This document shows positions 3-36,478 of a DNA stretch of 64,000 nt, in pieces. Made by a program: the position numbers and the translations under genes. Under the pieces are notes generated by a model. That model was given only the letters and a program-made list of their open reading frames with translations. It ran no database searches and was not told the DNA's origin. The stretch's first letter is position 1. Every line of letters starts with the position of its first letter. This stretch comes from a virus. The stretch lies in the IMG/VR virus record IMGVR_UViG_3300018080_005419. The stretch is one strand, 5' to 3'.

Positions 3-437
3 GTTTTGTGGATGAAATTTGACACCTGGATCTGGAACCAAAGAACTAGCAAATAAAGTAGTATTTCTTAATAAATTAATTCTTTCCTGATTTAATTTCT
101 TTCTATCTATAGCTCTCTTATATTTTGGAGTTTTCTTTTTATTTTTATTCGGTGTTTCAGAATCAAAGAATTTTTTATCATTTTCGATTACCTCAACTGG
201 AACCTCAATACCATTATCTGTATAGTATTTTCTCTGAATTAAACGAATAACGGCTTTCCTAATCCATTCTTTTGTAGTTTCAGGTGGTTGTTTTCCAGTA
301 AGAGATGAGTATTTTTCGTTAAGTTGAATATCTGTTAAATTAGGAACATCTTTAGCAAGTTCAAAAATTGCTTCCTTTGCTTTGTTTAGTGTTTCTTTTT
401 GCGTATTGTCTTCTTGTGGTTGATTATTACTTGTCAT
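3..437 (-). CDS. Hypothetical protein, N-terminal part; runs off the left edge of the window
   Basis: Not in the ORF track. Manual translation from ATG at 437 (AGGAG upstream) gives MTSNNQPQEDNTQKETLNKAKEAIFELAKDVPNLTDIQLNEKYSSLTGKQPPETTKEWIRKAVIRLIQRKYY..., open to the window end. The LNEKYSSLTGKQPP...WIRKAVIRLIQ stretch loosely recalls DUF2924. Confidence 0.75.
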   Translation of the reverse strand, partial: MTSNNQPQEDNTQKETLNKAKEAIFELAKDVPNLTDIQLNEKYSSLTGKQPPETTKEWIRKAVIRLIQRKYYTDNGIEVPVEVIENDKKFFDSETPNKNKKKTPKYKRAIDRKKLNQERINLLRNTTLFASSLVPDPGVKFHPQN

Positions 438-4179: not shown

Positions 4180-5195
4180 GCTGATGGCCTTTTAGACAAA
4201 ATATAAGTAATTGTATCATCTGGTAATCCTACTTCTATTGCTCTTTTTTCAAGCATATCCCACACATCAATTCTGGATATTCCGATATTTGCCAAACTTT
4301 TTGCAACCTCTTCAAATTCAGCTTCTGTTACTTCCTTATCGTCAAATGAAACGCCAACCTTCTCGTCAATAAATGGCGCTCCTTCTTTAAATACCTCTTC
4401 TTGGGTTAATGCAGATTCAACATTCCACATTTCCCACTTATATTTTTTAGTTTTGGGATCGATTAATATATCAACTCCACGAATAGGTCTGTCTACATCA
4501 TATTCGTTCTTTTGAGTTCTTGCTAGCGATCCAGGATTTATAAAAAGTGTGCCAATATCAGTAATAGTAGGATTAAAGCCCTGATGAAGATCTCCGCATA
4601 AAACAACATCTATAGATCTTTTTCCGTCGTTTTCTGTTTTAAACTCTCTTAAATCAATACCATAATGTTCATCTAATTTATCCATTAACAAATGATGTAC
4701 AAGAACAACACGAATATCGATATCTTTTGGGCGTTTTCTACTTGAAACTCGCATAGACCATTTAATCGGGTCAGAACTATTAGGACAAGCCAAAAATCCA
4801 ATTTTTAACCCTTGAATGTCTTTAACTAAGTCTTTATCTGTAGGAATTTCTTCAATGTTTTCAATAACACGAGAAGCCTGTCTGAATATAAAAGCTTGAG
4901 TGGATAAATGTCGCGTTCCATAGTCTTTGCCGTATAGATCGTGTTGGCCCCATGTATATAAAAATGGAACTTTAAGATGTTCATCAAAAATATGGATAGC
5001 TTTTTCTTTAACTTGATCCGCATTAAGTCTATATGTATGACAAAAATCACCTCCGAACAGTGCTAAGTCTGATTCGGAGGCGTGTTGAATACAATCTTTT
5101 AATTTTCCTAGAATAGTTTCAGGGTAATCGTCTTTTCTGCTGATAGGACCCTGACCACGCAAATGAAGATCGGTAAAGAATGAAAGTCTAATCAT
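4176..5195 (-). CDS. SbcD/Mre11/gp47-like metallophosphoesterase nuclease
   Basis: FTDLHL, GGDFCH, WGQHD, LVHH, CGDLH, then INPGSLAR. Confidence 0.8.
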   Translation of the reverse strand: MIRLSFFTDLHLRGQGPISRKDDYPETILGKLKDCIQHASESDLALFGGDFCHTYRLNADQVKEKAIHIFDEHLKVPFLYTWGQHDLYGKDYGTRHLSTQAFIFRQASRVIENIEEIPTDKDLVKDIQGLKIGFLACPNSSDPIKWSMRVSSRKRPKDIDIRVVLVHHLLMDKLDEHYGIDLREFKTENDGKRSIDVVLCGDLHQGFNPTITDIGTLFINPGSLARTQKNEYDVDRPIRGVDILIDPKTKKYKWEMWNVESALTQEEVFKEGAPFIDEKVGVSFDDKEVTEAEFEEVAKSLANIGISRIDVWDMLEKRAIEVGLPDDTITYILSKRPSA

Positions 5196-5246
5196 TGTTT
5201 TTTCCTTGTTAATTATGTCGCAAGATAGCGGGTAATGTTTTAATTA

Positions 5247-5555
5247 TTATATAGCGGGAACTCCATGTTGGTATCCGTAAATAACGCCAAACTTTGTTGT
5301 GAATCTTTCCTGGATCATTTGCGTATAGCCAGCAGTAGTAGGAGCAGAATATAGATCCTTATAATACAGACGTTTGTAGTTTTCTCCTTCTCCATCAGGA
5401 AGTGTAGAAGGTATATCCAAATACCGAATAATTTGATTTCGATAATCAGCGTCAGCCTCAGCAATAGGTACATTTACATATGGATTTGGGTCATTTGCTC
5501 GAATATCGTTTGGAACAGTAACAGTAAAATCATAATCTTGTGTATAAACAGGCAT
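5247..5555 (-). CDS. Hypothetical protein
   Basis: 102-aa ORF with AAGGAGG RBS, directly downstream of the DnaE C-half. Confidence 0.7.
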   Translation of the reverse strand: MPVYTQDYDFTVTVPNDIRANDPNPYVNVPIAEADADYRNQIIRYLDIPSTLPDGEGENYKRLYYKDLYSAPTTAGYTQMIQERFTTKFGVIYGYQHGVPAI

Positions 5556-5577
5556 AATTTGACCTCCTTAAATTGTA

Positions 5578-7035
5578 CTACTCTATGGCCGTTAAGTCCA
5601 GTAAATGTCTGCTCTTTCCATTATAAAAGCAACCATCACTGTCAATATCAAACTTCCTTAACGGCACTGTCATAATATGCCCAGTTATCAAAGTTTTTTC
5701 AAGATCGTCAAAATGCTTCTCCCAAACAAAGAAAGATATGTCGTCAAAGTCGTCTGAAAATTCCACTATCCACATAGGATTCCCAGACTTTTTGGACACT
5801 GTTTTCTTAATTTTTCCTATAACTCCAAGGAAAACGCCCTCTTCCGTGTTCTTCAATTCTTCTATCTTTGAGATTCCATATTCGTCTAATTTATCGTATG
5901 TTTCCATAGGTATTAACGAATGGCTTAATGAAATTCCTAATAATTCTTCTTCTGCGCTTTTTCTTTCTTCTTCTCCAAAATGCACATACTCATAAGTTTT
6001 TTCTTTCCTTATTTCTCCTAAAAATTGATTAATCATAAATTCACGGTCGCCAAAACAATCAAAAGCGCCAGATTTAATCAGAGCCATAATTTTAGATTTA
6101 TTACACTTTCTTTTTTCAACCTTATCGTAAAAATCTTTGAGGGAGTTGAACGGCCTTTTAGTAAGAACTTCATTGGCACCAGCAGGACCTAAATTCTTAA
6201 TCATACTCAGGCCCCATCGAATAGTGTTTCCTTCTAAGGTGAATTTGTTTTCAGAATTGTTTACATCAGGGGGAATAATAGAAATACCCATCTTTCTAGC
6301 ATATTGAATATATTTTTTAAGAATGCTGCCACCTCTCTTATCCTTTTTGGCAATATCTGTAAAGTTTAAGAGAGCAGCCATAAATTGTATAGGGAAATGA
6401 ACTTTAAGGAATAATGACCAATATGCTACCATTGCATAAGATGCTGCGTGGCTTAAGTTGAAACCGTAGCCCCCATAATTTTTAAGAGTTTCAACAAAAG
6501 TATCTAATTGATCTTGCGTTATAAGTCCGTCTTTGACAGATTTTTGCGAACGTTTTTTAAAGTCTTCTAATAAAACTTGTAGTTTCTTCATTGTTTCAGC
6601 ATTATCTTTTCCCTTTGCTAATCCTTTTCTTAGAGCATTAGCTTCAGCACCAGAAAATCCTGCTAAACGTCTAGCAATTGCCATTGCACTTTCTTGGTAG
6701 ATTGGGAGATTGTAGGATCTATCCAGAACATCAGCAACAGCAGGAATCGACTCCCATCTTTCATATCCCTTCTTTCTCTTACCGTAAGTAACATGTAAAT
6801 TACCACTCAAAGGATCTGGTCTTCCCAAAGTAGTAGCAGCATACATATCAGCGAATGAATCAATCCCTATCTCTTTAATAATCCCAATAGCAACATCTGT
6901 CTCAAATTGAAAAATGCCAAATACATCTAATTTGTTCAAACGCTTAAAGCATTCTTGATCATCATCTGGAACTTTAGCCATATCAAGTGGTTCTGGAGAT
7001 ACATTTTCTACAATACCAGGGTCAATTTTAAGCAT
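5578..7035 (-). CDS. dnaE: DNA polymerase III alpha (family C), C-terminal fragment (fingers, HhH, OB-fold)
   Basis: EPLDMAKVPDDD, GIFQFE, LGRPDPL, LPIYQE, GYGFNLSHAASY, IRWGLSMIKNLG, LIKSGAFD, EEELLG and an OB-fold region. Confidence 0.92.
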   Translation of the reverse strand: MLKIDPGIVENVSPEPLDMAKVPDDDQECFKRLNKLDVFGIFQFETDVAIGIIKEIGIDSFADMYAATTLGRPDPLSGNLHVTYGKRKKGYERWESIPAVADVLDRSYNLPIYQESAMAIARRLAGFSGAEANALRKGLAKGKDNAETMKKLQVLLEDFKKRSQKSVKDGLITQDQLDTFVETLKNYGGYGFNLSHAASYAMVAYWSLFLKVHFPIQFMAALLNFTDIAKKDKRGGSILKKYIQYARKMGISIIPPDVNNSENKFTLEGNTIRWGLSMIKNLGPAGANEVLTKRPFNSLKDFYDKVEKRKCNKSKIMALIKSGAFDCFGDREFMINQFLGEIRKEKTYEYVHFGEEERKSAEEELLGISLSHSLIPMETYDKLDEYGISKIEELKNTEEGVFLGVIGKIKKTVSKKSGNPMWIVEFSDDFDDISFFVWEKHFDDLEKTLITGHIMTVPLRKFDIDSDGCFYNGKSRHLLDLTAIE

Positions 7036-7105
7036 TTCTCTATTTTCCTTTATATTTTTCCTAACAAGTGTGAATCTATTTTTACTTCAAACGGAGAATA
7101 ATAAA

Positions 7106-7375
7106 ATGGAAGAAAGACAAGATGAAGTTATTTTTCAAACCGCAGAAGAAGCTTTCCAAAAACTTGCCGATTTAACAGGCAAGAAAATAATGGTTCCTGA
7201 TAAGGCTGAACCAACAGTAGCAGAAGAAAATCAAGAAGAAGAAGCTGTTACTGGAGGCACAACAAAAGAATTAGCCGACAAGCTTAGAGAACAAGGTGAA
7301 AAATACGGAGAAGCAGCTGACAAATTAGAAGACATTGATTCTGAAATTGAATCTTTCGGAACAGCAATTGAATAG
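7106..7375 (+). CDS. Small acidic protein with AFQxLADxxGKKI motif, inserted antisense between the dnaE halves
   Basis: ATG at 7106 follows GGAG (the track starts at GTG 7070). Contains EEAFQKLADLTGKKIMV. Confidence 0.75.
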   Translation: MEERQDEVIFQTAEEAFQKLADLTGKKIMVPDKAEPTVAEENQEEEAVTGGTTKELADKLREQGEKYGEAADKLEDIDSEIESFGTAIE

Positions 7376-7378
7376 CAA

Positions 7379-9976
7379 TTAATCTAAACTCATCTCTAAA
7401 GCTGTTTCAGGAATTCCAATTAATTGATGTCCTGGCTCTAAGTCCCTAACTGTTGTTTCGTATATTTCTCCTTCCCAGTCTACTTCTACAATATCGTCTT
7501 CCTTTAAACGTATTAATCGACCGTCTTCTAATTTGATGACGGTCGTAGTTTTTTCAATTAGATCTAAAGCGTCTGAAATAATAGAAATCGTTCTTAATCC
7601 AAGAATGTCATATTTAACCAATCCAACTTCCTGAAGTTCTTTTAATGCTAATCCTTCAGTCCAACAAGCAACAACTTCTGCTTCGTCTTTGCCATCTTTT
7701 TTAGTTGTTAATTTTCGTACAGGAATCCATTTAGTAAGATCAACAGATGCTACAATCATACCTGCCGGATGTTTACCTATATTTCTAATTTGACCTCTTA
7801 AAGCTTTACATGCATTACTCATATAAGGATGTGCGTCAATTAGTCCTTTAATTGTTGGCTCTTTTTCTAACAAAGAACCCCAATCCATTTTATCAAGAGC
7901 GTCACCATCACTATCCGGATCATCATCATCTTTATATTTATCGTTCAATCCTTTAGTAATTGCATTTAAAAATCCAGGCTCAATACAAAAAACTCGTCCA
8001 ACATCTTTAATTGCTGTCTTTGTCCAAATTAATTGATAAGATCCAATACTACAAACGTGCTCTTCTCCAAATAATTTTCCCATTGCTTCTTTTACTTCTC
8101 GTCTATATCTTGGATCAACGTCCCAATCAATATCAGGAGGGTCAGATCTAGATTCGTCTAAAAATCGCTCGAAAAGAAGATTATACTTAATAGGATCAAG
8201 TTTTGTAATTTCTAAACAATACGATATTAAAGAACCAGCAGCACTTCCACGGCCAGGACCAGTCAATATCTTATGTTCTTTGCAATATTCAACAATCTTT
8301 CTGAAAATTAAAAAATAATCAGCAAAGTCAAGGTTTTCAATAACAGATAGTTCATGTTCCAATCTTTCTTCATATTTTGATTTGCCTGAAAGTTTAAATT
8401 TATCCATACCTTCTCGACAAAAAGATTTTAAATCAGCATTAGAATTATCACTCATCTTTGGTAATTTAATGGACGTATCAATGTCAAAGTTTTCAATAGA
8501 TCTAGCTAAACTTCTTGTGTCTCGAATAGCTTTCCAAAATATTTCCTCTGTAAAAACATCATCTTCGGGACCATGCATATCTTTCCAAGACTCGTATAAT
8601 TCATCTAATGTCTTAAAGTAGAAATCCTTTCCTTCAAACTCCCATACAGCATCTTCATTCAGAGACTTATCTAAATTACCTTCCCCTTTCATGATTCTAT
8701 CGGCATTTTCATCAAATACAGGAAGACAAGCCTCATATCCATTATCTTCTAAAAATTTACGAGCATATAAAAGACCATCTTGCAATATTGCTTGTTTACT
8801 TTCTAATTCGTTTTCTTCCTTCCATCTATCTGTTTTCGGATCTATTTCAAAACCTTCAGATGTTAATTTGGGCTTCATATATCCAGCAGCAACAGACATG
8901 GCTTTATCAACCATTGTTTTATTGTCTCGTATCATCAACAAAATATCGTGAACTTCTGAGTCTTCTTTTCTTAAATAATGTACATCTGTTGTAATTACAT
9001 ATTTAGCACCAACCCACTCACCAAATGCAATGAGCTTCCTATTAATGTCTATTTGTTCTTCCCATTCAATTAGGTTTAACTCGATATAAAAATCATCAAA
9101 AATGCTCTTATAAAAATCGTATCTCTCTTTTGCTATTTCTAATCTTTTATCCCAGGACACTTTTTCGTCATTTAGGATAGTAGGAATTTCTCCAGCGCCA
9201 CCATCAGTAGAAGTTGCAATGACTCCTTCTCCATGTTCTGCTAAAAAGTCACAATCTGTTCTTGGTTTATAATAGAATCCGTTTAATTCAGCATCGTTTT
9301 GAATTTGAATTATATTGAACCATCCCTTTAAATTTTTAGCCAATAGGATTTGATGAAAATTCCGACGATACTTCAACTTCATTTCGCCATCCATGTCTTT
9401 ATATGTTTCTTTCGGCAATTTTCTATATTGATTTAAATAAGCTTCAACTCCAAAGACGGGTTTCATTCCCAATTTTTTAGCCAGAATATATTGTTTTACC
9501 CATCCTCCAAGCGAACCATGATTTGTTGCTGTAAGATAAGTCCATCCCCTTTCCATCATTAGGTCTGCTCTTTTTTGTGCTGTTCCTAATCCATCACGCA
9601 AACTATATTCGTCATGTAAATGGAAATGAGCAAAATCTTCTAATGCTACCCTCTCAATAGTAGACAAAGTATCGTCGTCAATTTCGTCATCAATTCGAAC
9701 TGTTAAGTAATCCTTTATAGTTGGAGGATTGTCGCAATGGGAAAAGATTACAAGATTCGGATTGCAAATTTCTAATTCTTCTTGGAGAATTTCGGCATAA
9801 TTTTCATGATCCTTCAAGGTCACAAAAATGCACTGTTCTTTATCCAGATCAAGTCGTTCAAGGGTATAATCACAGTATTCTTGAGATGGTTCACTTTCTG
9901 TAACTATAACAAAATTATAGGACTTACGCTGAGGAGTTACAGGTTCAATATCTGGCAAATCAAGATAGGTAGGCAT
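7379..9976 (-). CDS. dnaE: DNA polymerase III alpha (family C), N-terminal fragment (N-extension, PHP, palm) with a 56-aa non-DnaE tail
   Basis: HFHLHDEYSLRDG, TNHGS, FGVEAY, ITTDVHY, GPGRGSAAGS, PPDIDWD, KHPAG, LVKYDILGLRT. Confidence 0.93.
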   Translation of the reverse strand: MPTYLDLPDIEPVTPQRKSYNFVIVTESEPSQEYCDYTLERLDLDKEQCIFVTLKDHENYAEILQEELEICNPNLVIFSHCDNPPTIKDYLTVRIDDEIDDDTLSTIERVALEDFAHFHLHDEYSLRDGLGTAQKRADLMMERGWTYLTATNHGSLGGWVKQYILAKKLGMKPVFGVEAYLNQYRKLPKETYKDMDGEMKLKYRRNFHQILLAKNLKGWFNIIQIQNDAELNGFYYKPRTDCDFLAEHGEGVIATSTDGGAGEIPTILNDEKVSWDKRLEIAKERYDFYKSIFDDFYIELNLIEWEEQIDINRKLIAFGEWVGAKYVITTDVHYLRKEDSEVHDILLMIRDNKTMVDKAMSVAAGYMKPKLTSEGFEIDPKTDRWKEENELESKQAILQDGLLYARKFLEDNGYEACLPVFDENADRIMKGEGNLDKSLNEDAVWEFEGKDFYFKTLDELYESWKDMHGPEDDVFTEEIFWKAIRDTRSLARSIENFDIDTSIKLPKMSDNSNADLKSFCREGMDKFKLSGKSKYEERLEHELSVIENLDFADYFLIFRKIVEYCKEHKILTGPGRGSAAGSLISYCLEITKLDPIKYNLLFERFLDESRSDPPDIDWDVDPRYRREVKEAMGKLFGEEHVCSIGSYQLIWTKTAIKDVGRVFCIEPGFLNAITKGLNDKYKDDDDPDSDGDALDKMDWGSLLEKEPTIKGLIDAHPYMSNACKALRGQIRNIGKHPAGMIVASVDLTKWIPVRKLTTKKDGKDEAEVVACWTEGLALKELQEVGLVKYDILGLRTISIISDALDLIEKTTTVIKLEDGRLIRLKEDDIVEVDWEGEIYETTVRDLEPGHQLIGIPETALEMSLD

Positions 9977-10100
9977 ATGTGTATCTTCTCCTTTCGTATA
10001 TCTTCTTTTATTCTACCTTTAGATCAAGAAAAAACTTCTATATTTCTTTATATTTTAGCCGTTTATGTAAGACGATTACTTTCTATAAGGAGTGAACACA

Positions 10101-11660
10101 ATGAATATTACTGGTGGACAGCTTAGGCTTCTCACAAAGGTTCTCCCAAGATTAAAGTTTGCTACAGTAGTCGGGCTTTCTCAATTTTTAGGGTTTGATC
10201 TTAATGGTTTGCTTAGTATCCGAACAGCAGGTAGAACCGCAGCTGTTGAGGATGAAGAAGCAAGAGAACAAGAAGACGTTGCACTAGAAGATATTATGGA
10301 GGGAAAAAGAGAGGAAGAAGAAACCCCCGCCAAAGATTATATTGAAGATCACTCAGATCCTACTATTGCTGCTTTTAATTCATATGTTGAAAATGATCTT
10401 GTTCGTAAAAAATATTTCCCAGATACAAAATTAAAACTACAAAAAGCCCTCGCAAATAATCCGAATGCCAACGAAATTATGCAAAAATTAAGTAGTCCTG
10501 AATTTACCAAATCAAGCAAAAAGCATACTGATATTAAAAAGGATGTCAGATCATATGCAAAGGAAGTTGGATTAACCGGGACAGAGATTGATTTAGCAGA
10601 TTCATATGTTTCACTACAAAGAATTCTTAACGGTAAATTTAGAACAGATTTTAAATCAATTATTATGAATCATGCTAAAAAAATAGTAAGTGCAAAAGTT
10701 CTTGAATCTTTAGAAGATGCTGTTGGTTGGATTATTACTGCTATAATACAAGGTCGAAAGATTCTGAACAAAAGTTTTTTACAGGGAGAGAGCGATCCCG
10801 AAAAGAGTTATTCATTAGAAGAACAAATTGATTTAAAGTATTTCGGAGAAGGAAAATACGTAGGTGCTCAAAGCATTATTGAAACACTTACACATCTTTC
10901 AAGGACAACAGCTGGAAATACTATAAAACTACTTAAAGGTGAAGAACATAGCAGTATACATGAGAGTGTAGGAGATGAAGAAGATTCTACAATGGGAGAT
11001 TTAATACGCGATAAAAGAACTGAAAGTCCTGATGAAGCTGAAATGAGAAGAGAAGTTAAAAAGATATTAGAAGAAGTTGTTAAAGAAAATGCAAAATCTA
11101 AAGAAGAAGCAGATACGATTTTATGGGCAATGGATTATGCTGAAAAGGCTCCCATTGAAAGAAAGGGAACCGGAGAAGGCGTAGGACTAGAAAGTACTTC
11201 ATATTATACTTCAGATCCAAAAGCATGGGAAGAAATTGGCATTATGTCGCAAAATGATTATAATAACCGAATAAGAGGTCCCATGCAAAGACTAAGACCG
11301 TTGATTGATGCACGTTTACGAAGCGAAATGGGAATTAGAATTTCATCTATTCTCAGTCAACAATTGTTAATTCGTGCAGCTGGAGGAGGCAAATTAAAAT
11401 TAGCATCTAAGATTTCTAACGTATCACCTTGGAGAAATTTTGGCAACGTTAAGGTATACGAAGCTGGCAAACCACAATTTGCTCACGAATTTTATTGGGA
11501 AATTGACGGTAACAAGGTTAAAATAGCAGATGTGCAGGATGTTGACGAAGAACATATCGATGAAGCATATCAGTCAGCACTGCAAGCTGTTCAACAAGAA
11601 GCATTTCGATCTAATTTAGAAGAAAAAGAGAAAAATAGTGTTGAAGGAAATATGGGCTAA
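10101..11660 (+). CDS. Large divergent sigma-70-like protein
   Basis: ATG at 10101 follows AAGGAG. SIHESVGDEEDSTMGDLIRDKRTESPDEAEMRREVKKILEEV closely matches sigma-70 region 3.2. Weaker region-2-like (LEDAVGWIITAI) and region-4-like (WEEIGI...RGPMQRLR) segments are present. Confidence 0.55.
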   Translation: MNITGGQLRLLTKVLPRLKFATVVGLSQFLGFDLNGLLSIRTAGRTAAVEDEEAREQEDVALEDIMEGKREEEETPAKDYIEDHSDPTIAAFNSYVENDLVRKKYFPDTKLKLQKALANNPNANEIMQKLSSPEFTKSSKKHTDIKKDVRSYAKEVGLTGTEIDLADSYVSLQRILNGKFRTDFKSIIMNHAKKIVSAKVLESLEDAVGWIITAIIQGRKILNKSFLQGESDPEKSYSLEEQIDLKYFGEGKYVGAQSIIETLTHLSRTTAGNTIKLLKGEEHSSIHESVGDEEDSTMGDLIRDKRTESPDEAEMRREVKKILEEVVKENAKSKEEADTILWAMDYAEKAPIERKGTGEGVGLESTSYYTSDPKAWEEIGIMSQNDYNNRIRGPMQRLRPLIDARLRSEMGIRISSILSQQLLIRAAGGGKLKLASKISNVSPWRNFGNVKVYEAGKPQFAHEFYWEIDGNKVKIADVQDVDEEHIDEAYQSALQAVQQEAFRSNLEEKEKNSVEGNMG

Positions 11661-33331: not shown

Positions 33332-36300
33332 TTATAAATATTTAAGTGCTTCTTTCGCTCCAAAGGATTTAATAGCGCAAACTTGATCTACATTGTCTCC
33401 AATAGCCGCAGCAGAAAGAACATCCTTATCTTTTAATACCTTTCTTACATGGTCTTCTATTGTATTCAAACAAATAAAATTAATTACATTTACCACATGT
33501 TTTGTCGTAATTCTGTGCGCTCTATCCGTTCTCTGTTTCATAATAGCCGGAGACCAATTGTCATCGTAATGTAAAACATAAGATGCTTCCTGGAAATTAA
33601 GTCCTGTTGATCCTGCTTCATCCATAACACAGATATTTACTGTTGGATCTTCATTGAATTCTTTAGCAATTTGAGGGCGCTTTTTCTTGGATACTCTCCC
33701 TGTAATTTTAAAAGTTTTCCAACCATTCTTTTCAAATTCTACATACAATCTGTCTACCATTTGTTCAAACATAGAAAACACTAAAACCTTATTATTATTA
33801 GCAATAACTTCTTCTAATAATTCCATACAAGCATTAAATTTAGATCCAAATTCGGGATATTCATCGACAAGAAAAGGAGCATTACAAAATTGTCGCGCTC
33901 TTAAAACTGCTGTAATTACTTCTGCTTCTTCGGTGACTTTATGGGCTTGATTACGAATAGCATTATATATTTTTCTTTCCTCTGTTGACAATTCCACATA
34001 TACATTTTTAAAGATCTTTTCAGGCAGTTCTTTTGCTACTTCTTCTTTTAATCTTCTCAGAAAAAATGGCTCTATTGTTTTTCTTACCTCATCAACATTC
34101 ATATACCCAACAACTGCATTCCATTCATTTCTAATAGCATACTTGTCTAAGAATTTTCCTCTTGTCATAAATAAACCAGGAACAAGAAATTCAAAAATGC
34201 TATGTAGATCTTCTAGTTTTCCATCAATTGGAGTTCCTGACAATCCTATTCTAATGCCGTTTTCTGAAAGCTTAAGTTTCTTCATTACTTTGGATCTAGT
34301 TGATTTCCAATTTTTAAGCATATGAATTTCATCAACAATAATAATATCAAAATCATCACGTAAAACATCAGCATCATCAAAATCTCTTACTATTAATTCT
34401 GGATTAACAACAATAAAAAAGGCATCTGTATTCCAAAGCGTATCTCGTTTATCAGGAGAACCATCAACAATTACAAAATCTTCATTTGTCCAGAATTCCA
34501 GTTCTTCTTTCCAGTTATATTTAACAGAAGCAGGAGCAACAATTAAACATTTTTTTGCTTTATTAAATTTCTTTCTCCAGAGCGCCATTGCTATTGATTG
34601 CATACTATTATGCCCGAGAGCTAAATCTACCACATAATTAGATTCACCACTAATTTCAAAATCATATACATAATCATTATATTTTTCTTCTTTTATATCT
34701 TGAATTTGTAGCCATATATAATCTTCATAAATCATAGATTCTAATTCTTTAAGTGTTTCTTTAATTTCTTTTTTGTTATCTTTTAAATTCTTTTTCATAG
34801 CTTCTCGTCTAGCACTCCATTTGGATCGTGTAATATCAGGAATGCCATTTTTAATCACATTTTTAATTGTTTTTATAATTTTAATAACTGTTTCTGTTGA
34901 GGGATTTTGAGGTATGACTTTTTCCGAAACATGTACATATTCAATTCCACTAAGATTGTATGTAAAATCGCTAATTTTTAATAGTTTCCTTAATATGTGT
35001 CTGCATGGAATACTATTGGCAATATTTGTATTTTCTGTTTTGGAACATAGTTTATTTAATCTTTCATTTTTTCTTTTCGAAATAAATCCTATTTTTTCTT
35101 TAAATATCCTTGCATATTTTCCTCCTATGGTGATTCTCCAATATAATGCATTTCCCCACCTCGGAGTATATATTGTTTTATTATTTATAACTCCAACTAT
35201 TCCAAAACGTCTTAACATATAGTGCATAGATCTAATTATACTTTCTGATTTTGAAGATAATTCAATATTGTCCTTGTTACAACACCCCTCTGCTTCAAAA
35301 TAGTGTTGAATAAATGCCTTAGCAACACTTTCATTAGAATTAGTAATTTTTTCAGGAATAATTTTATCCCCCGAAAGAGAACCCCAACAATAATCTGGAA
35401 ATTTTTTCTTCAACCAATTTTTATATATTTTAGAAGTAATTCTTAAATAAGAACAATGATTTCTGTCTTCTTTGATAAGATGTATATTTGGATTTTCTTC
35501 AAATTTTAAGTCTTTAAAAATTTTTCGAAGTTTGATAAGAATAGATCTTTCTTTTTGAGAAATTGTAAAAGTGCTTGATTTATATTCGTGACCCTCTGCA
35601 ATTTGCCAAGCTAATAATATTGCACAATTTTTATTTATTTCCTCTTTACTATTACATGATGGAATTATTTTTGGAACTAATATCCAATCTCCAATTTTTA
35701 GATTTTTAGCTTTAATCCATTTATTTTCATTGTTCCAAAATAAATGTCTCAATCCGACCTCTATTTTAGATCCATCCTGAAGAGTAATCGATCTTATTTT
35801 TCTTACCTTTTCTCTATAAATATTTATCGCTTTTTGATATTTTGATTTTTGTTTTTTAATTCCCAAAACTTTAATTTTTGATAATTTTCTCCATTCTCCT
35901 CTTCCTTCTTTAATCGATGTATTTGGATCGCTATAGTTATCCCATATTTCTTCTAATGTTGTAGATCCGATATTTTTAACACAAACTCTACTATTTTTAG
36001 AGGCGCATTTGCCGAGTCCCATGGTATCCCCAAGAAGCAAACCATATTTTACCAGGGTGAAGAATTGTACACCTAGTTTTTGATAATTTCTTAGAGATAT
36101 TCCTTCTGGGGGACTAATACCTGGGATTCTTAAGGATATGGGATGATCTTTGAGTGCTGCCTTTTTAACTTTTTTAAGCTCTTCTATTCTTGCTACTTCT
36201 TGTTCTGTTATATCACCTATTCTTGGATCTAAAAAATCAAAGGGGATTTTATCTAATAACATTTCAAGATTAGGAATAGTAAAGAACCAAGCCCATCCTT

Positions 36301-36478
36301 TTGGCTCTCCCGGATGCCATGTACCTCCCAATCTTTTTAGGTTTTCCTTATCTGCAAATGGACTTTCTACAATAAGCAGATTTTCTTCTTCTAAATAAAA
36401 TAAACTTCTTGTGCCTGGAGCGTCGAATTTAATAGGCAATAATCCGCTCTTGGCCATCTTTTTGGGAGGCTTAGCCAA
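33332..36478 (-). CDS. SNF2/SWI2-family helicase with one intein
   Basis: LRNYQ, GDTMGLGK|intein|SMQ, VAPASVKYNW, VDEIH, LSGTPI, FLRRLK, KVLVFS, STGLNFQ, QRTDRAHR. Confidence 0.92.
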   Translation of the reverse strand: MAKPPKKMAKSGLLPIKFDAPGTRSLFYLEEENLLIVESPFADKENLKRLGGTWHPGEPKGWAWFFTIPNLEMLLDKIPFDFLDPRIGDITEQEVARIEELKKVKKAALKDHPISLRIPGISPPEGISLRNYQKLGVQFFTLVKYGLLLGDTMGLGKCASKNSRVCVKNIGSTTLEEIWDNYSDPNTSIKEGRGEWRKLSKIKVLGIKKQKSKYQKAINIYREKVRKIRSITLQDGSKIEVGLRHLFWNNENKWIKAKNLKIGDWILVPKIIPSCNSKEEINKNCAILLAWQIAEGHEYKSSTFTISQKERSILIKLRKIFKDLKFEENPNIHLIKEDRNHCSYLRITSKIYKNWLKKKFPDYCWGSLSGDKIIPEKITNSNESVAKAFIQHYFEAEGCCNKDNIELSSKSESIIRSMHYMLRRFGIVGVINNKTIYTPRWGNALYWRITIGGKYARIFKEKIGFISKRKNERLNKLCSKTENTNIANSIPCRHILRKLLKISDFTYNLSGIEYVHVSEKVIPQNPSTETVIKIIKTIKNVIKNGIPDITRSKWSARREAMKKNLKDNKKEIKETLKELESMIYEDYIWLQIQDIKEEKYNDYVYDFEISGESNYVVDLALGHNSMQSIAMALWRKKFNKAKKCLIVAPASVKYNWKEELEFWTNEDFVIVDGSPDKRDTLWNTDAFFIVVNPELIVRDFDDADVLRDDFDIIIVDEIHMLKNWKSTRSKVMKKLKLSENGIRIGLSGTPIDGKLEDLHSIFEFLVPGLFMTRGKFLDKYAIRNEWNAVVGYMNVDEVRKTIEPFFLRRLKEEVAKELPEKIFKNVYVELSTEERKIYNAIRNQAHKVTEEAEVITAVLRARQFCNAPFLVDEYPEFGSKFNACMELLEEVIANNNKVLVFSMFEQMVDRLYVEFEKNGWKTFKITGRVSKKKRPQIAKEFNEDPTVNICVMDEAGSTGLNFQEASYVLHYDDNWSPAIMKQRTDRAHRITTKHVVNVINFICLNTIEDHVRKVLKDKDVLSAAAIGDNVDQVCAIKSFGAKEALKYL
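34607..36007 (-). mobile_element. 467-aa intein with LAGLIDADG homing endonuclease, inserted in the Walker A motif
   Basis: Starts at Cys (GK|CASKNSRV) and ends HN|S. Block F YVYDFEI. LAGLIDADG-like helices LLAWQIAEG and FIQHYFEAEG. Confidence 0.9.

Follow-up and report, generated by a model that had tools for sequence, protein, structure and literature searches.

The stretch of DNA analyzed here, 64,000 nucleotides of the IMG/VR virus record IMGVR_UViG_3300018080_005419 (the window), comes from an uncultured jumbo phage of 280 kilobases (kb). The replicative DNA polymerase of this phage, the alpha subunit of DNA polymerase III (Pol III alpha, the dnaE product), is encoded by two separate genes, dnaE-N and dnaE-C, whose open reading frames (ORFs) are 343 nucleotides apart. 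At the break, dnaE-N ends in a tail and dnaE-C opens with a head, and the two correspond to the parts of a small insert whose predicted fold is like that of HINT domains, the intein fold. Positions are those of the window:

7379..9976, minus strand: dnaE-N, an ORF of 865 amino acids (aa) with an N-terminal extension of ~115 aa, PHP, palm, thumb, and a 56-aa tail
5578..7035, minus strand: dnaE-C, an ORF of 485 aa with a 13-aa head, fingers, HhH, and an OB-like end
7379..7549, minus strand: tail of dnaE-N (56 codons plus the stop), the N-terminal part of the HINT-like insert
6997..7035, minus strand: head of dnaE-C (its first 13 codons, MLKIDPGIVENVS), the C-terminal strand of the HINT-like insert

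The domain set of DnaE (PHP, PF07733, PF17657, and HhH) is complete across both ORFs. In Pfam searches, dnaE-N matched PHP (E = 3.8e-28) and the palm/thumb family PF07733 (E = 5.2e-67), while dnaE-C, which is preceded by its own ribosome-binding site (AAGGAAAA), matched the fingers family PF17657 (E = 2e-31) and HHH_6 (E = 2.1e-24), together with a weak OB match. The catalytic Asp triad of Escherichia coli alpha consists of D401, D403, and D555. In dnaE-N, the catalytic Asp residues are D615 and D617 in PDIDWD and D790 in YDILGL; they are invariant in the clade (alignment A4), and all of them lie inside the region that aligns with E. coli alpha residues 376-575. After the helix ending in ...LDLIEK, dnaE-N continues for 56 extra residues, beginning TTTV, up to its stop codon, and dnaE-C passes from its 13 head residues into the DnaE motif PEPLDM..VPDDD. 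Solved DnaE structures (Mycobacterium tuberculosis, E. coli, and Thermus aquaticus) align to the N-half no further than ...LIEK (~E. coli alpha residue 575), and the spacing between DxLGL and FQxE, 50 residues in ordinary DnaE, is 76 + 41 = 117 over the two halves of the window. The break thus falls in a short linker of ordinary DnaE, at the palm/fingers junction. A previous description made from the DNA letters without database searches (the sequence-only reading) had given the split, the 56-residue tail, and the 13-residue head correctly, as the ORFs and Pfam matches confirm, and was also right to place the break in a short linker and at a site other than the cyanobacterial GFN site.

The break is real and old. 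At least 14 distinct contigs, which come from several samples, share this stop and restart (P0002-5, L001, L003, L004/5, L008, L020-24, L026, L027, and L040), the genes in the gap differ among them, and some (L001, L003, and L004/L005) have no C-half within 5 kb, which disposes of the assembly artefact that the sequence-only reading had allowed for. In homology searches, N-halves of 859-866 aa (P0002-4, 69-75% identical) finish in the same tail and C-halves of 485-486 aa (P0122-124) open with the same head motif, M[LI]KIEPGIV..VS, which is kept in the C-halves P0122-P0127, P0133, and P0138. Eight further contigs with a stop at this position came from a metagenome scan (L020-24, L026, L027, and L040). 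Among the contigs with the break, tail identity ranges from 46 to 83%, and both frames are open. Close relatives were lacking among cultured phages, where the best tblastn match had 32% identity and blastn gave nothing useful. Single-sequence scans of IMG/VR gave no match, and the alignment scan of this database recovered DnaEs at 23-33% identity only, along with one fragment of 28 residues that covers the conserved DILGL motif at 61% identity.

Both added segments are under purifying selection. The proportion of synonymous differences (pS) is saturated, at 0.65-0.78, while non-synonymous divergence (pN) is 0.17-0.33 in the tail versus 0.09-0.23 in the remaining N-half. With pN far below pS in both halves, and in the tail well under the saturated pS, the tail is constrained, and it evolves ~1.5-2x faster than the remaining protein.

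The insert is also present in relatives in which dnaE is unbroken. Three such proteins of 1223-1292 aa (P0012 of L006, P0013 of L007, and P0014; ~48-50% identical) carry a 70-95 aa segment, in frame, at the break site; its first part aligns to the tail and its last strand (..RRPWVVKSVT.. in P0012) to the head, and the DILGL-to-FQFE spacing in these proteins is 119-131 aa. The insert is missing from more distant phage DnaEs (35-44% identical) and from all eight IMG/VR loci that span the site (23-33%). In a quick IQ-TREE search, the insert clade was monophyletic (Shimodaira-Hasegawa-like approximate likelihood ratio test [SH-aLRT] 100) and the split forms were a nested subclade (100), with the DnaEs without the insert as outgroup; the unbroken lineages and the split clade form a polytomy. 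The simplest history compatible with this tree would be that the insert was gained once and the gene broken once later. Since the unbroken relatives carry the same segment in frame, the module is older than the break and is not simply the debris of a split intein that died after splitting. The sequence-only reading had named beforehand, as an observation that would count against a dead intein fragment, the same segment in intact relatives, and P0012-P0014 have it. The survey of related phages for an intact intein here, which it had proposed, was negative: an active intein at exactly this site was seen in none of 120 homologues, 9 IMG/VR loci, and 35 metagenome loci.

Protein splicing at the break, including trans-splicing, is excluded, because there is no nucleophile, no TxxH, no terminal Asn, and no +1 Cys/Ser/Thr. 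Block A with its Cys/Ser nucleophile is absent, as TTTV follows directly on the DnaE helix ...LDLIEK and the structural match (below) starts only at intein residue ~45-50. The TxxH of block B is replaced at the aligned position by RLKEDD in the window and by RLH..D or RLR..E in the relatives, with no T..H in register. Blocks F and G, the terminal Asn (or HN), and the +1 Cys/Ser/Thr are absent as well, and the 13-aa head passes straight into PEPLDM. The sequence-only reading had already noted the missing catalytic residues and the lack of an HN/C junction at the C-half.

The resemblance to inteins comes mainly from predicted structures. Two independent AlphaFold2 models were used, one of the unbroken insert of P0012 (106 aa, from a 10-row alignment) and one of the window's own tail. 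The P0012 insert was predicted with a mean local confidence (predicted local distance difference test [pLDDT]) of 75.6 and a predicted template modeling score of 0.67; the strands equivalent to tail and head had pLDDT values of ~90 (head strand ~92), and the intervening loop 63-72. In a Foldseek search against the PDB, approximately the top 45 matches of this model were inteins or Hedgehog HINT domains (best E = 0.0075), and in BFVD its matches were terminases with inteins, a Pol III alpha, and proteins carrying a Hint or intein annotation. The tail model alone, a check proposed by the sequence-only reading, had HINT structures as all of its top 16 VIA matches, including Npu IntN over residues 48..96 of 101. 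Both models thus matched almost only HINT/intein structures, which points to a HINT-like core.

The position of these matches shows how much of an intein the module would represent. In mini-inteins the matches begin at residue 45-50, and in the C-fragment they stop after 12-22 residues, so that both splice-junction ends (the block A strands, and blocks F and G) are missing. In these superpositions the tail corresponds to intein residues ~48-100, from the block-B hairpin onward, which is the second half of IntN, and the head to the first strand of IntC; the range of the P0012 model reaches residues 103-114 of the fused Npu DnaE intein. Several matches of the P0012 insert cross the endonuclease insertion (PI-PfuI, 74..428; Mtu RecA intein, 52..417) or the 102/103 split of NpuDnaE (52..114), and the low-confidence, length-variable loop of the unbroken insert would therefore be the canonical endonuclease-insertion and split site. 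On the models, it is this very loop in which the gene of the window is interrupted. The resulting layout is that of a naturally split intein, with predicted HINT fragments at the end of one gene piece and at the start of the other, cut at the endonuclease-insertion loop.

We propose that a truncated, dead intein core became a permanent domain of DnaE, was split later at the canonical site, and now helps the subunits to assemble non-covalently; we give this explanation a probability of about 0.6. Pol III alpha would be a two-subunit enzyme, in which DnaE-N supplies PHP, palm, thumb, and the three catalytic Asp, and DnaE-C supplies fingers, HhH, and OB, the halves being translated from separate genes and assembled without covalent joining. 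The beta-rich, clade-specific module (~70 aa) at the palm/fingers junction, near E. coli alpha residue 575, would be the central part of a HINT fold that lost both splice-junction ends before the gene broke at its endonuclease/split loop. By analogy with the docking of split inteins, the head strand would zip in trans onto the tail's sheet and complete the module, and this contact may help to hold the halves together beside the ordinary palm-fingers interface. Since the head strand is conserved in the split forms and its equivalent lies in the confident core of the unbroken-insert model, the module of the split forms would be completed only in trans. Descent of the module from a real intein is plausible, and so is its docking role. 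As a case of natural exaptation, in which a dead HINT core served first as a permanent polymerase domain and then as the heterodimerization module of a Pol III alpha in two subunits (three to four pieces in relatives), the proposal is more tentative, at slightly below even odds. The sequence-only idea that a dead intein fragment was left at the break holds in part: the HINT-like fold of the two models and the break at the canonical split-intein site agree with it, and the age of the module, which precedes the break, does not.

At the level of sequence, the HINT signals are weak. When the tail/insert profile was compared with all PDB sequences, the top four matches were inteins (the PolII inteins 5bkh, 7oec, and 2lcj, and the CDC21 intein 6rpp; E = 0.05-0.15, with PDB intein matches overall at 0.05-0.5), and in these the tail aligned to the block-B hairpin and the next L..GD strand. 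A hidden Markov model (HMM) of the tail scored 9-13 bits on the clade's own N-inteins, equalled by 0-1 of 300 shuffles each, and gave marginal scores only on other inteins; hhalign gave P = 3-4e-4. The alignment that the sequence-only reading had drawn between the tail and block B of the intact intein elsewhere in the window (35672-35788) is not significant alone, with 2.1 bits for the tail HMM on this SNF2-helicase intein and 44/1000 shuffles as good. The ESM Atlas returned DnaE-finger clusters only (scores 0.79-0.82), a search that is uninformative for part of a protein.

Several results weigh against our proposal. The intein/HINT models of Pfam, one of the checks that the sequence-only reading had suggested, were silent on six tails and inserts even at E ≤ 10, and an exhaustive profile search of 1.84 billion protein representatives returned only the clade itself and repeat-protein noise. 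With a 13-sequence profile, five of the eight top PDB matches were inteins, but IF-1 stood level with them at E ~0.1; the hhalign probability was only 35-39%, and its best register places the tail on block A instead of block B. In size, the module amounts to about half of a minimal intein, the models were built on alignments of 9-10 sequences, for which AlphaFold2 may be drawn to a familiar fold, and the tail is strongly acidic while the head is near neutral, so that the charge complementarity of split inteins is absent.

The silence of Pfam, the equal score of IF-1 (an OB fold), the ambiguous hhalign register, and the half-sized module are also what would be expected if the insert were a generic small beta domain (an SH3-, OB-, or Tudor-like hairpin stack) with an origin of its own in this DnaE clade, unrelated to inteins. 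The gene would then have broken in its floppiest loop, with the palm-fingers interface holding the halves, and the HINT likeness would be convergent or a prediction artefact. We regard this explanation as unlikely, though it is to be taken seriously. Less probable by far is that the remnant serves mainly something other than assembly, as a docking surface for another replisome protein or as a tolerated passenger, with the break position incidental. Unbroken relatives, which need no assembly aid, keep the module, its surface is very acidic, and its rate of evolution is raised, all of which fit such a role; however, the head strand is conserved in all split C-halves, and the equivalent strand belongs to the confident core of the unbroken-insert model. 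That the halves are rejoined into one polypeptide or mRNA, by trans-splicing via the remnant, RNA splicing, or translational bypass, is very improbable: active split inteins do operate at other DnaE sites of close relatives, but here the structural match begins at intein residue ~45 with every splicing motif missing, positions 5000-10500 contain no Rfam intron, the gap is filled by a conserved gene on the opposite strand, and the halves are >5 kb apart in several relatives. A decaying pseudogene or an assembly artefact, favored by nothing except the break itself, is hardly credible given the at least 14 independent contigs with 46-83% tail identity, open frames, and the same stop and restart, the low pN relative to pS in both halves, the intact catalytic motifs, and the ribosome-binding site of the C-half.

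The DnaE clade to which the window belongs is unusually rich in inteins, and relatives have DnaE in three or four pieces. Some of them recut the N-half at GPGRG|C by an active split intein (P0006-11 are the N-pieces), and a 318-aa middle piece (P0141) has IntC at its start and the same dead tail at its end. Inteins after YQE and at GFNK|C...SN|SH interrupt some C-halves or, as active split inteins, divide them, and these cuts come on top of the break that lacks an intein. The intact intein of the window interrupts a helicase gene, starting with C after GLGK and finishing with HN before S:

34607-36007, minus strand: intein of an SNF2-family helicase, 467 aa, in ORF 33332-36478, with a LAGLIDADG-type endonuclease region
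L004:8001-11048, and P0006-P0011, P0141, P0128-P0131, P0134, P0136, and P0138: relatives with DnaE in three or four pieces

In bacterial Pol III alpha, the known intein sites are concentrated in the fingers (PMC4760082). Naturally split DnaE inteins are known from cyanobacteria (Ssp/Npu DnaE; Wu et al. 1998, as cited in PMC2677866), where Pol III alpha is likewise in two pieces, with the N-part of HINT ending the first and the C-part opening the second, and where the cut falls in the same topological HINT loop. However, their host site is the GFN motif in the fingers, not the palm/fingers junction; the module of the window lacks ~45 N-terminal and ~25 C-terminal residues and all catalytic residues, there is no trans-splicing, so that the product is two chains, and the module stays in frame in unbroken relatives. 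Dassa et al. 2009 (PMC2677866) described fractured genes, three metagenomic DnaE loci among them; in the fractured DnaE loci the split inteins are complete, retaining all five catalytic residues, and a free-standing homing endonuclease occupies the gap. As in the window, phage-like replication genes lie there in adjacent pieces with another gene between them, and active split inteins at other DnaE sites also occur in relatives of this phage. In contrast to those loci, the HINT part here is dead and truncated, and the gap gene is a small acidic antisense ORF without a nuclease signature. No free-standing homing endonuclease was found in the gap, as its ORF has no significant Pfam or PHROG match and relatives have ankyrin or unrelated genes there. 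Hedgehog autoprocessing and bacterial intein-like (BIL) domains belong to the same fold superfamily (1at0, 2lwy, and 6tmm are among the structural matches of the module) but keep a catalytic N-terminal nucleophile and cleavage/ligation chemistry, whereas the module would be a non-catalytic, permanent internal domain. NrdA of phage Aeh1, a case named in the sequence-only reading, is reportedly split by the homing endonuclease mobE and encoded in pieces without splicing (Friedrich et al. 2007). It resembles our proposal in that an essential enzyme consists of two unspliced polypeptides assembled non-covalently, and differs in having no intein-derived module at the junction and an endonuclease as the inserted gene. 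In the open-access literature we came across no account of a dead, truncated HINT module within DnaE.

To our knowledge, inteins are usually viewed as selfish elements that either splice or are lost, and their documented host uses are conditional splicing switches. A non-splicing intein core fixed under purifying selection in an essential polymerase would, if our explanation is right, be a third fate, structural domestication, and its subsequent interruption at the split-intein loop would be one way for split genes to persist without splicing chemistry. It would be a natural counterpart of the engineered "dead split intein" affinity pairs, and the natural minimal pair of fragments (~56 + 13 residues) is a candidate orthogonal protein-docking tag. 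DnaE of this clade also appears able to work in two to four pieces.

The gap between the two halves is occupied in the window by a small gene on the opposite strand, convergent with dnaE-N (the stops are 3 bp apart) and divergent from dnaE-C. The ORF caller starts it at 7070, and the probable start is MEERQ, which is preceded by a GGAGA ribosome-binding site. Homologues occupy the dnaE gap of three relatives:

7106..7375, plus strand: antisense acidic gene of the window, 89 aa from the probable start MEERQ (7106)
L008:4307-4585, minus strand: homologue in the dnaE gap
L022:1544-1966, minus strand: homologue, listed as 140 aa, with a TTG start that is probably too far upstream
L027:406-657, minus strand: homologue in the dnaE gap

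The proteins of these genes are very acidic, 83-92 aa long in at least four phages, and share a conserved core, ..EIVFQ..EAFQKLAD.TGKK..VP.KAE..; the window's protein and the ORF in the equivalent position of L008 share 55% identity (E = 2e-30). The antisense protein had no PHROG match, no convincing Pfam match (none below E = 0.046), and no assignment to a nuclease family; it may act as a regulator or as a mimic of DNA. In the P0002 contig, the gap holds a 383-aa ankyrin gene instead. A group I or II intron in the gap was rejected, as the Rfam search (E ≤ 1, positions 5000-10500) gave no intron or RNA element, only a lone chance snoRNA match. Promoter and terminator sites in the gap were no more frequent than in shuffles, and no convincing repeats marking a mobile-element insertion were found at the break. 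A perfect 13-nucleotide inverted repeat (7321-7333 and 7523-7535) joins the antisense gene and the tail, both copies encoding K-L-E-D. Such a match is expected by chance ~0.004 times in 700 nucleotides, and the repeat is either chance or the trace of an inverted duplication.

Some further observations concern individual loci. The extra matches of the tail profile to P0145-149 were discarded as noise from Ig-like or repeat proteins. At L008:2622-4310, in the closest relative, the N-half was called as 562 aa only, without its PHP part, and adjoins a shortened upstream gene; either the contig is chimeric or the locus underwent another rearrangement or deletion. One relative carries an insertion immediately upstream of dnaE, at L004:4307-5948, that comprises a TnpB-like gene (Cas12f1-like_TNB) together with a resolvase gene. 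From L048:4717 onward, an unrelated phage DnaE (27% identical) is stopped right after GIFQFEG, with foreign sequence beyond, and may be another gene in pieces or an intron case. Residues 1-115 of dnaE-N (9632-9976, minus strand) form a clade-specific domain before PHP for which no family was found, the sole match being a weak one to PreAtp-grasp (E = 0.16); other phage DnaEs have UDG or PF22539 domains at this position.

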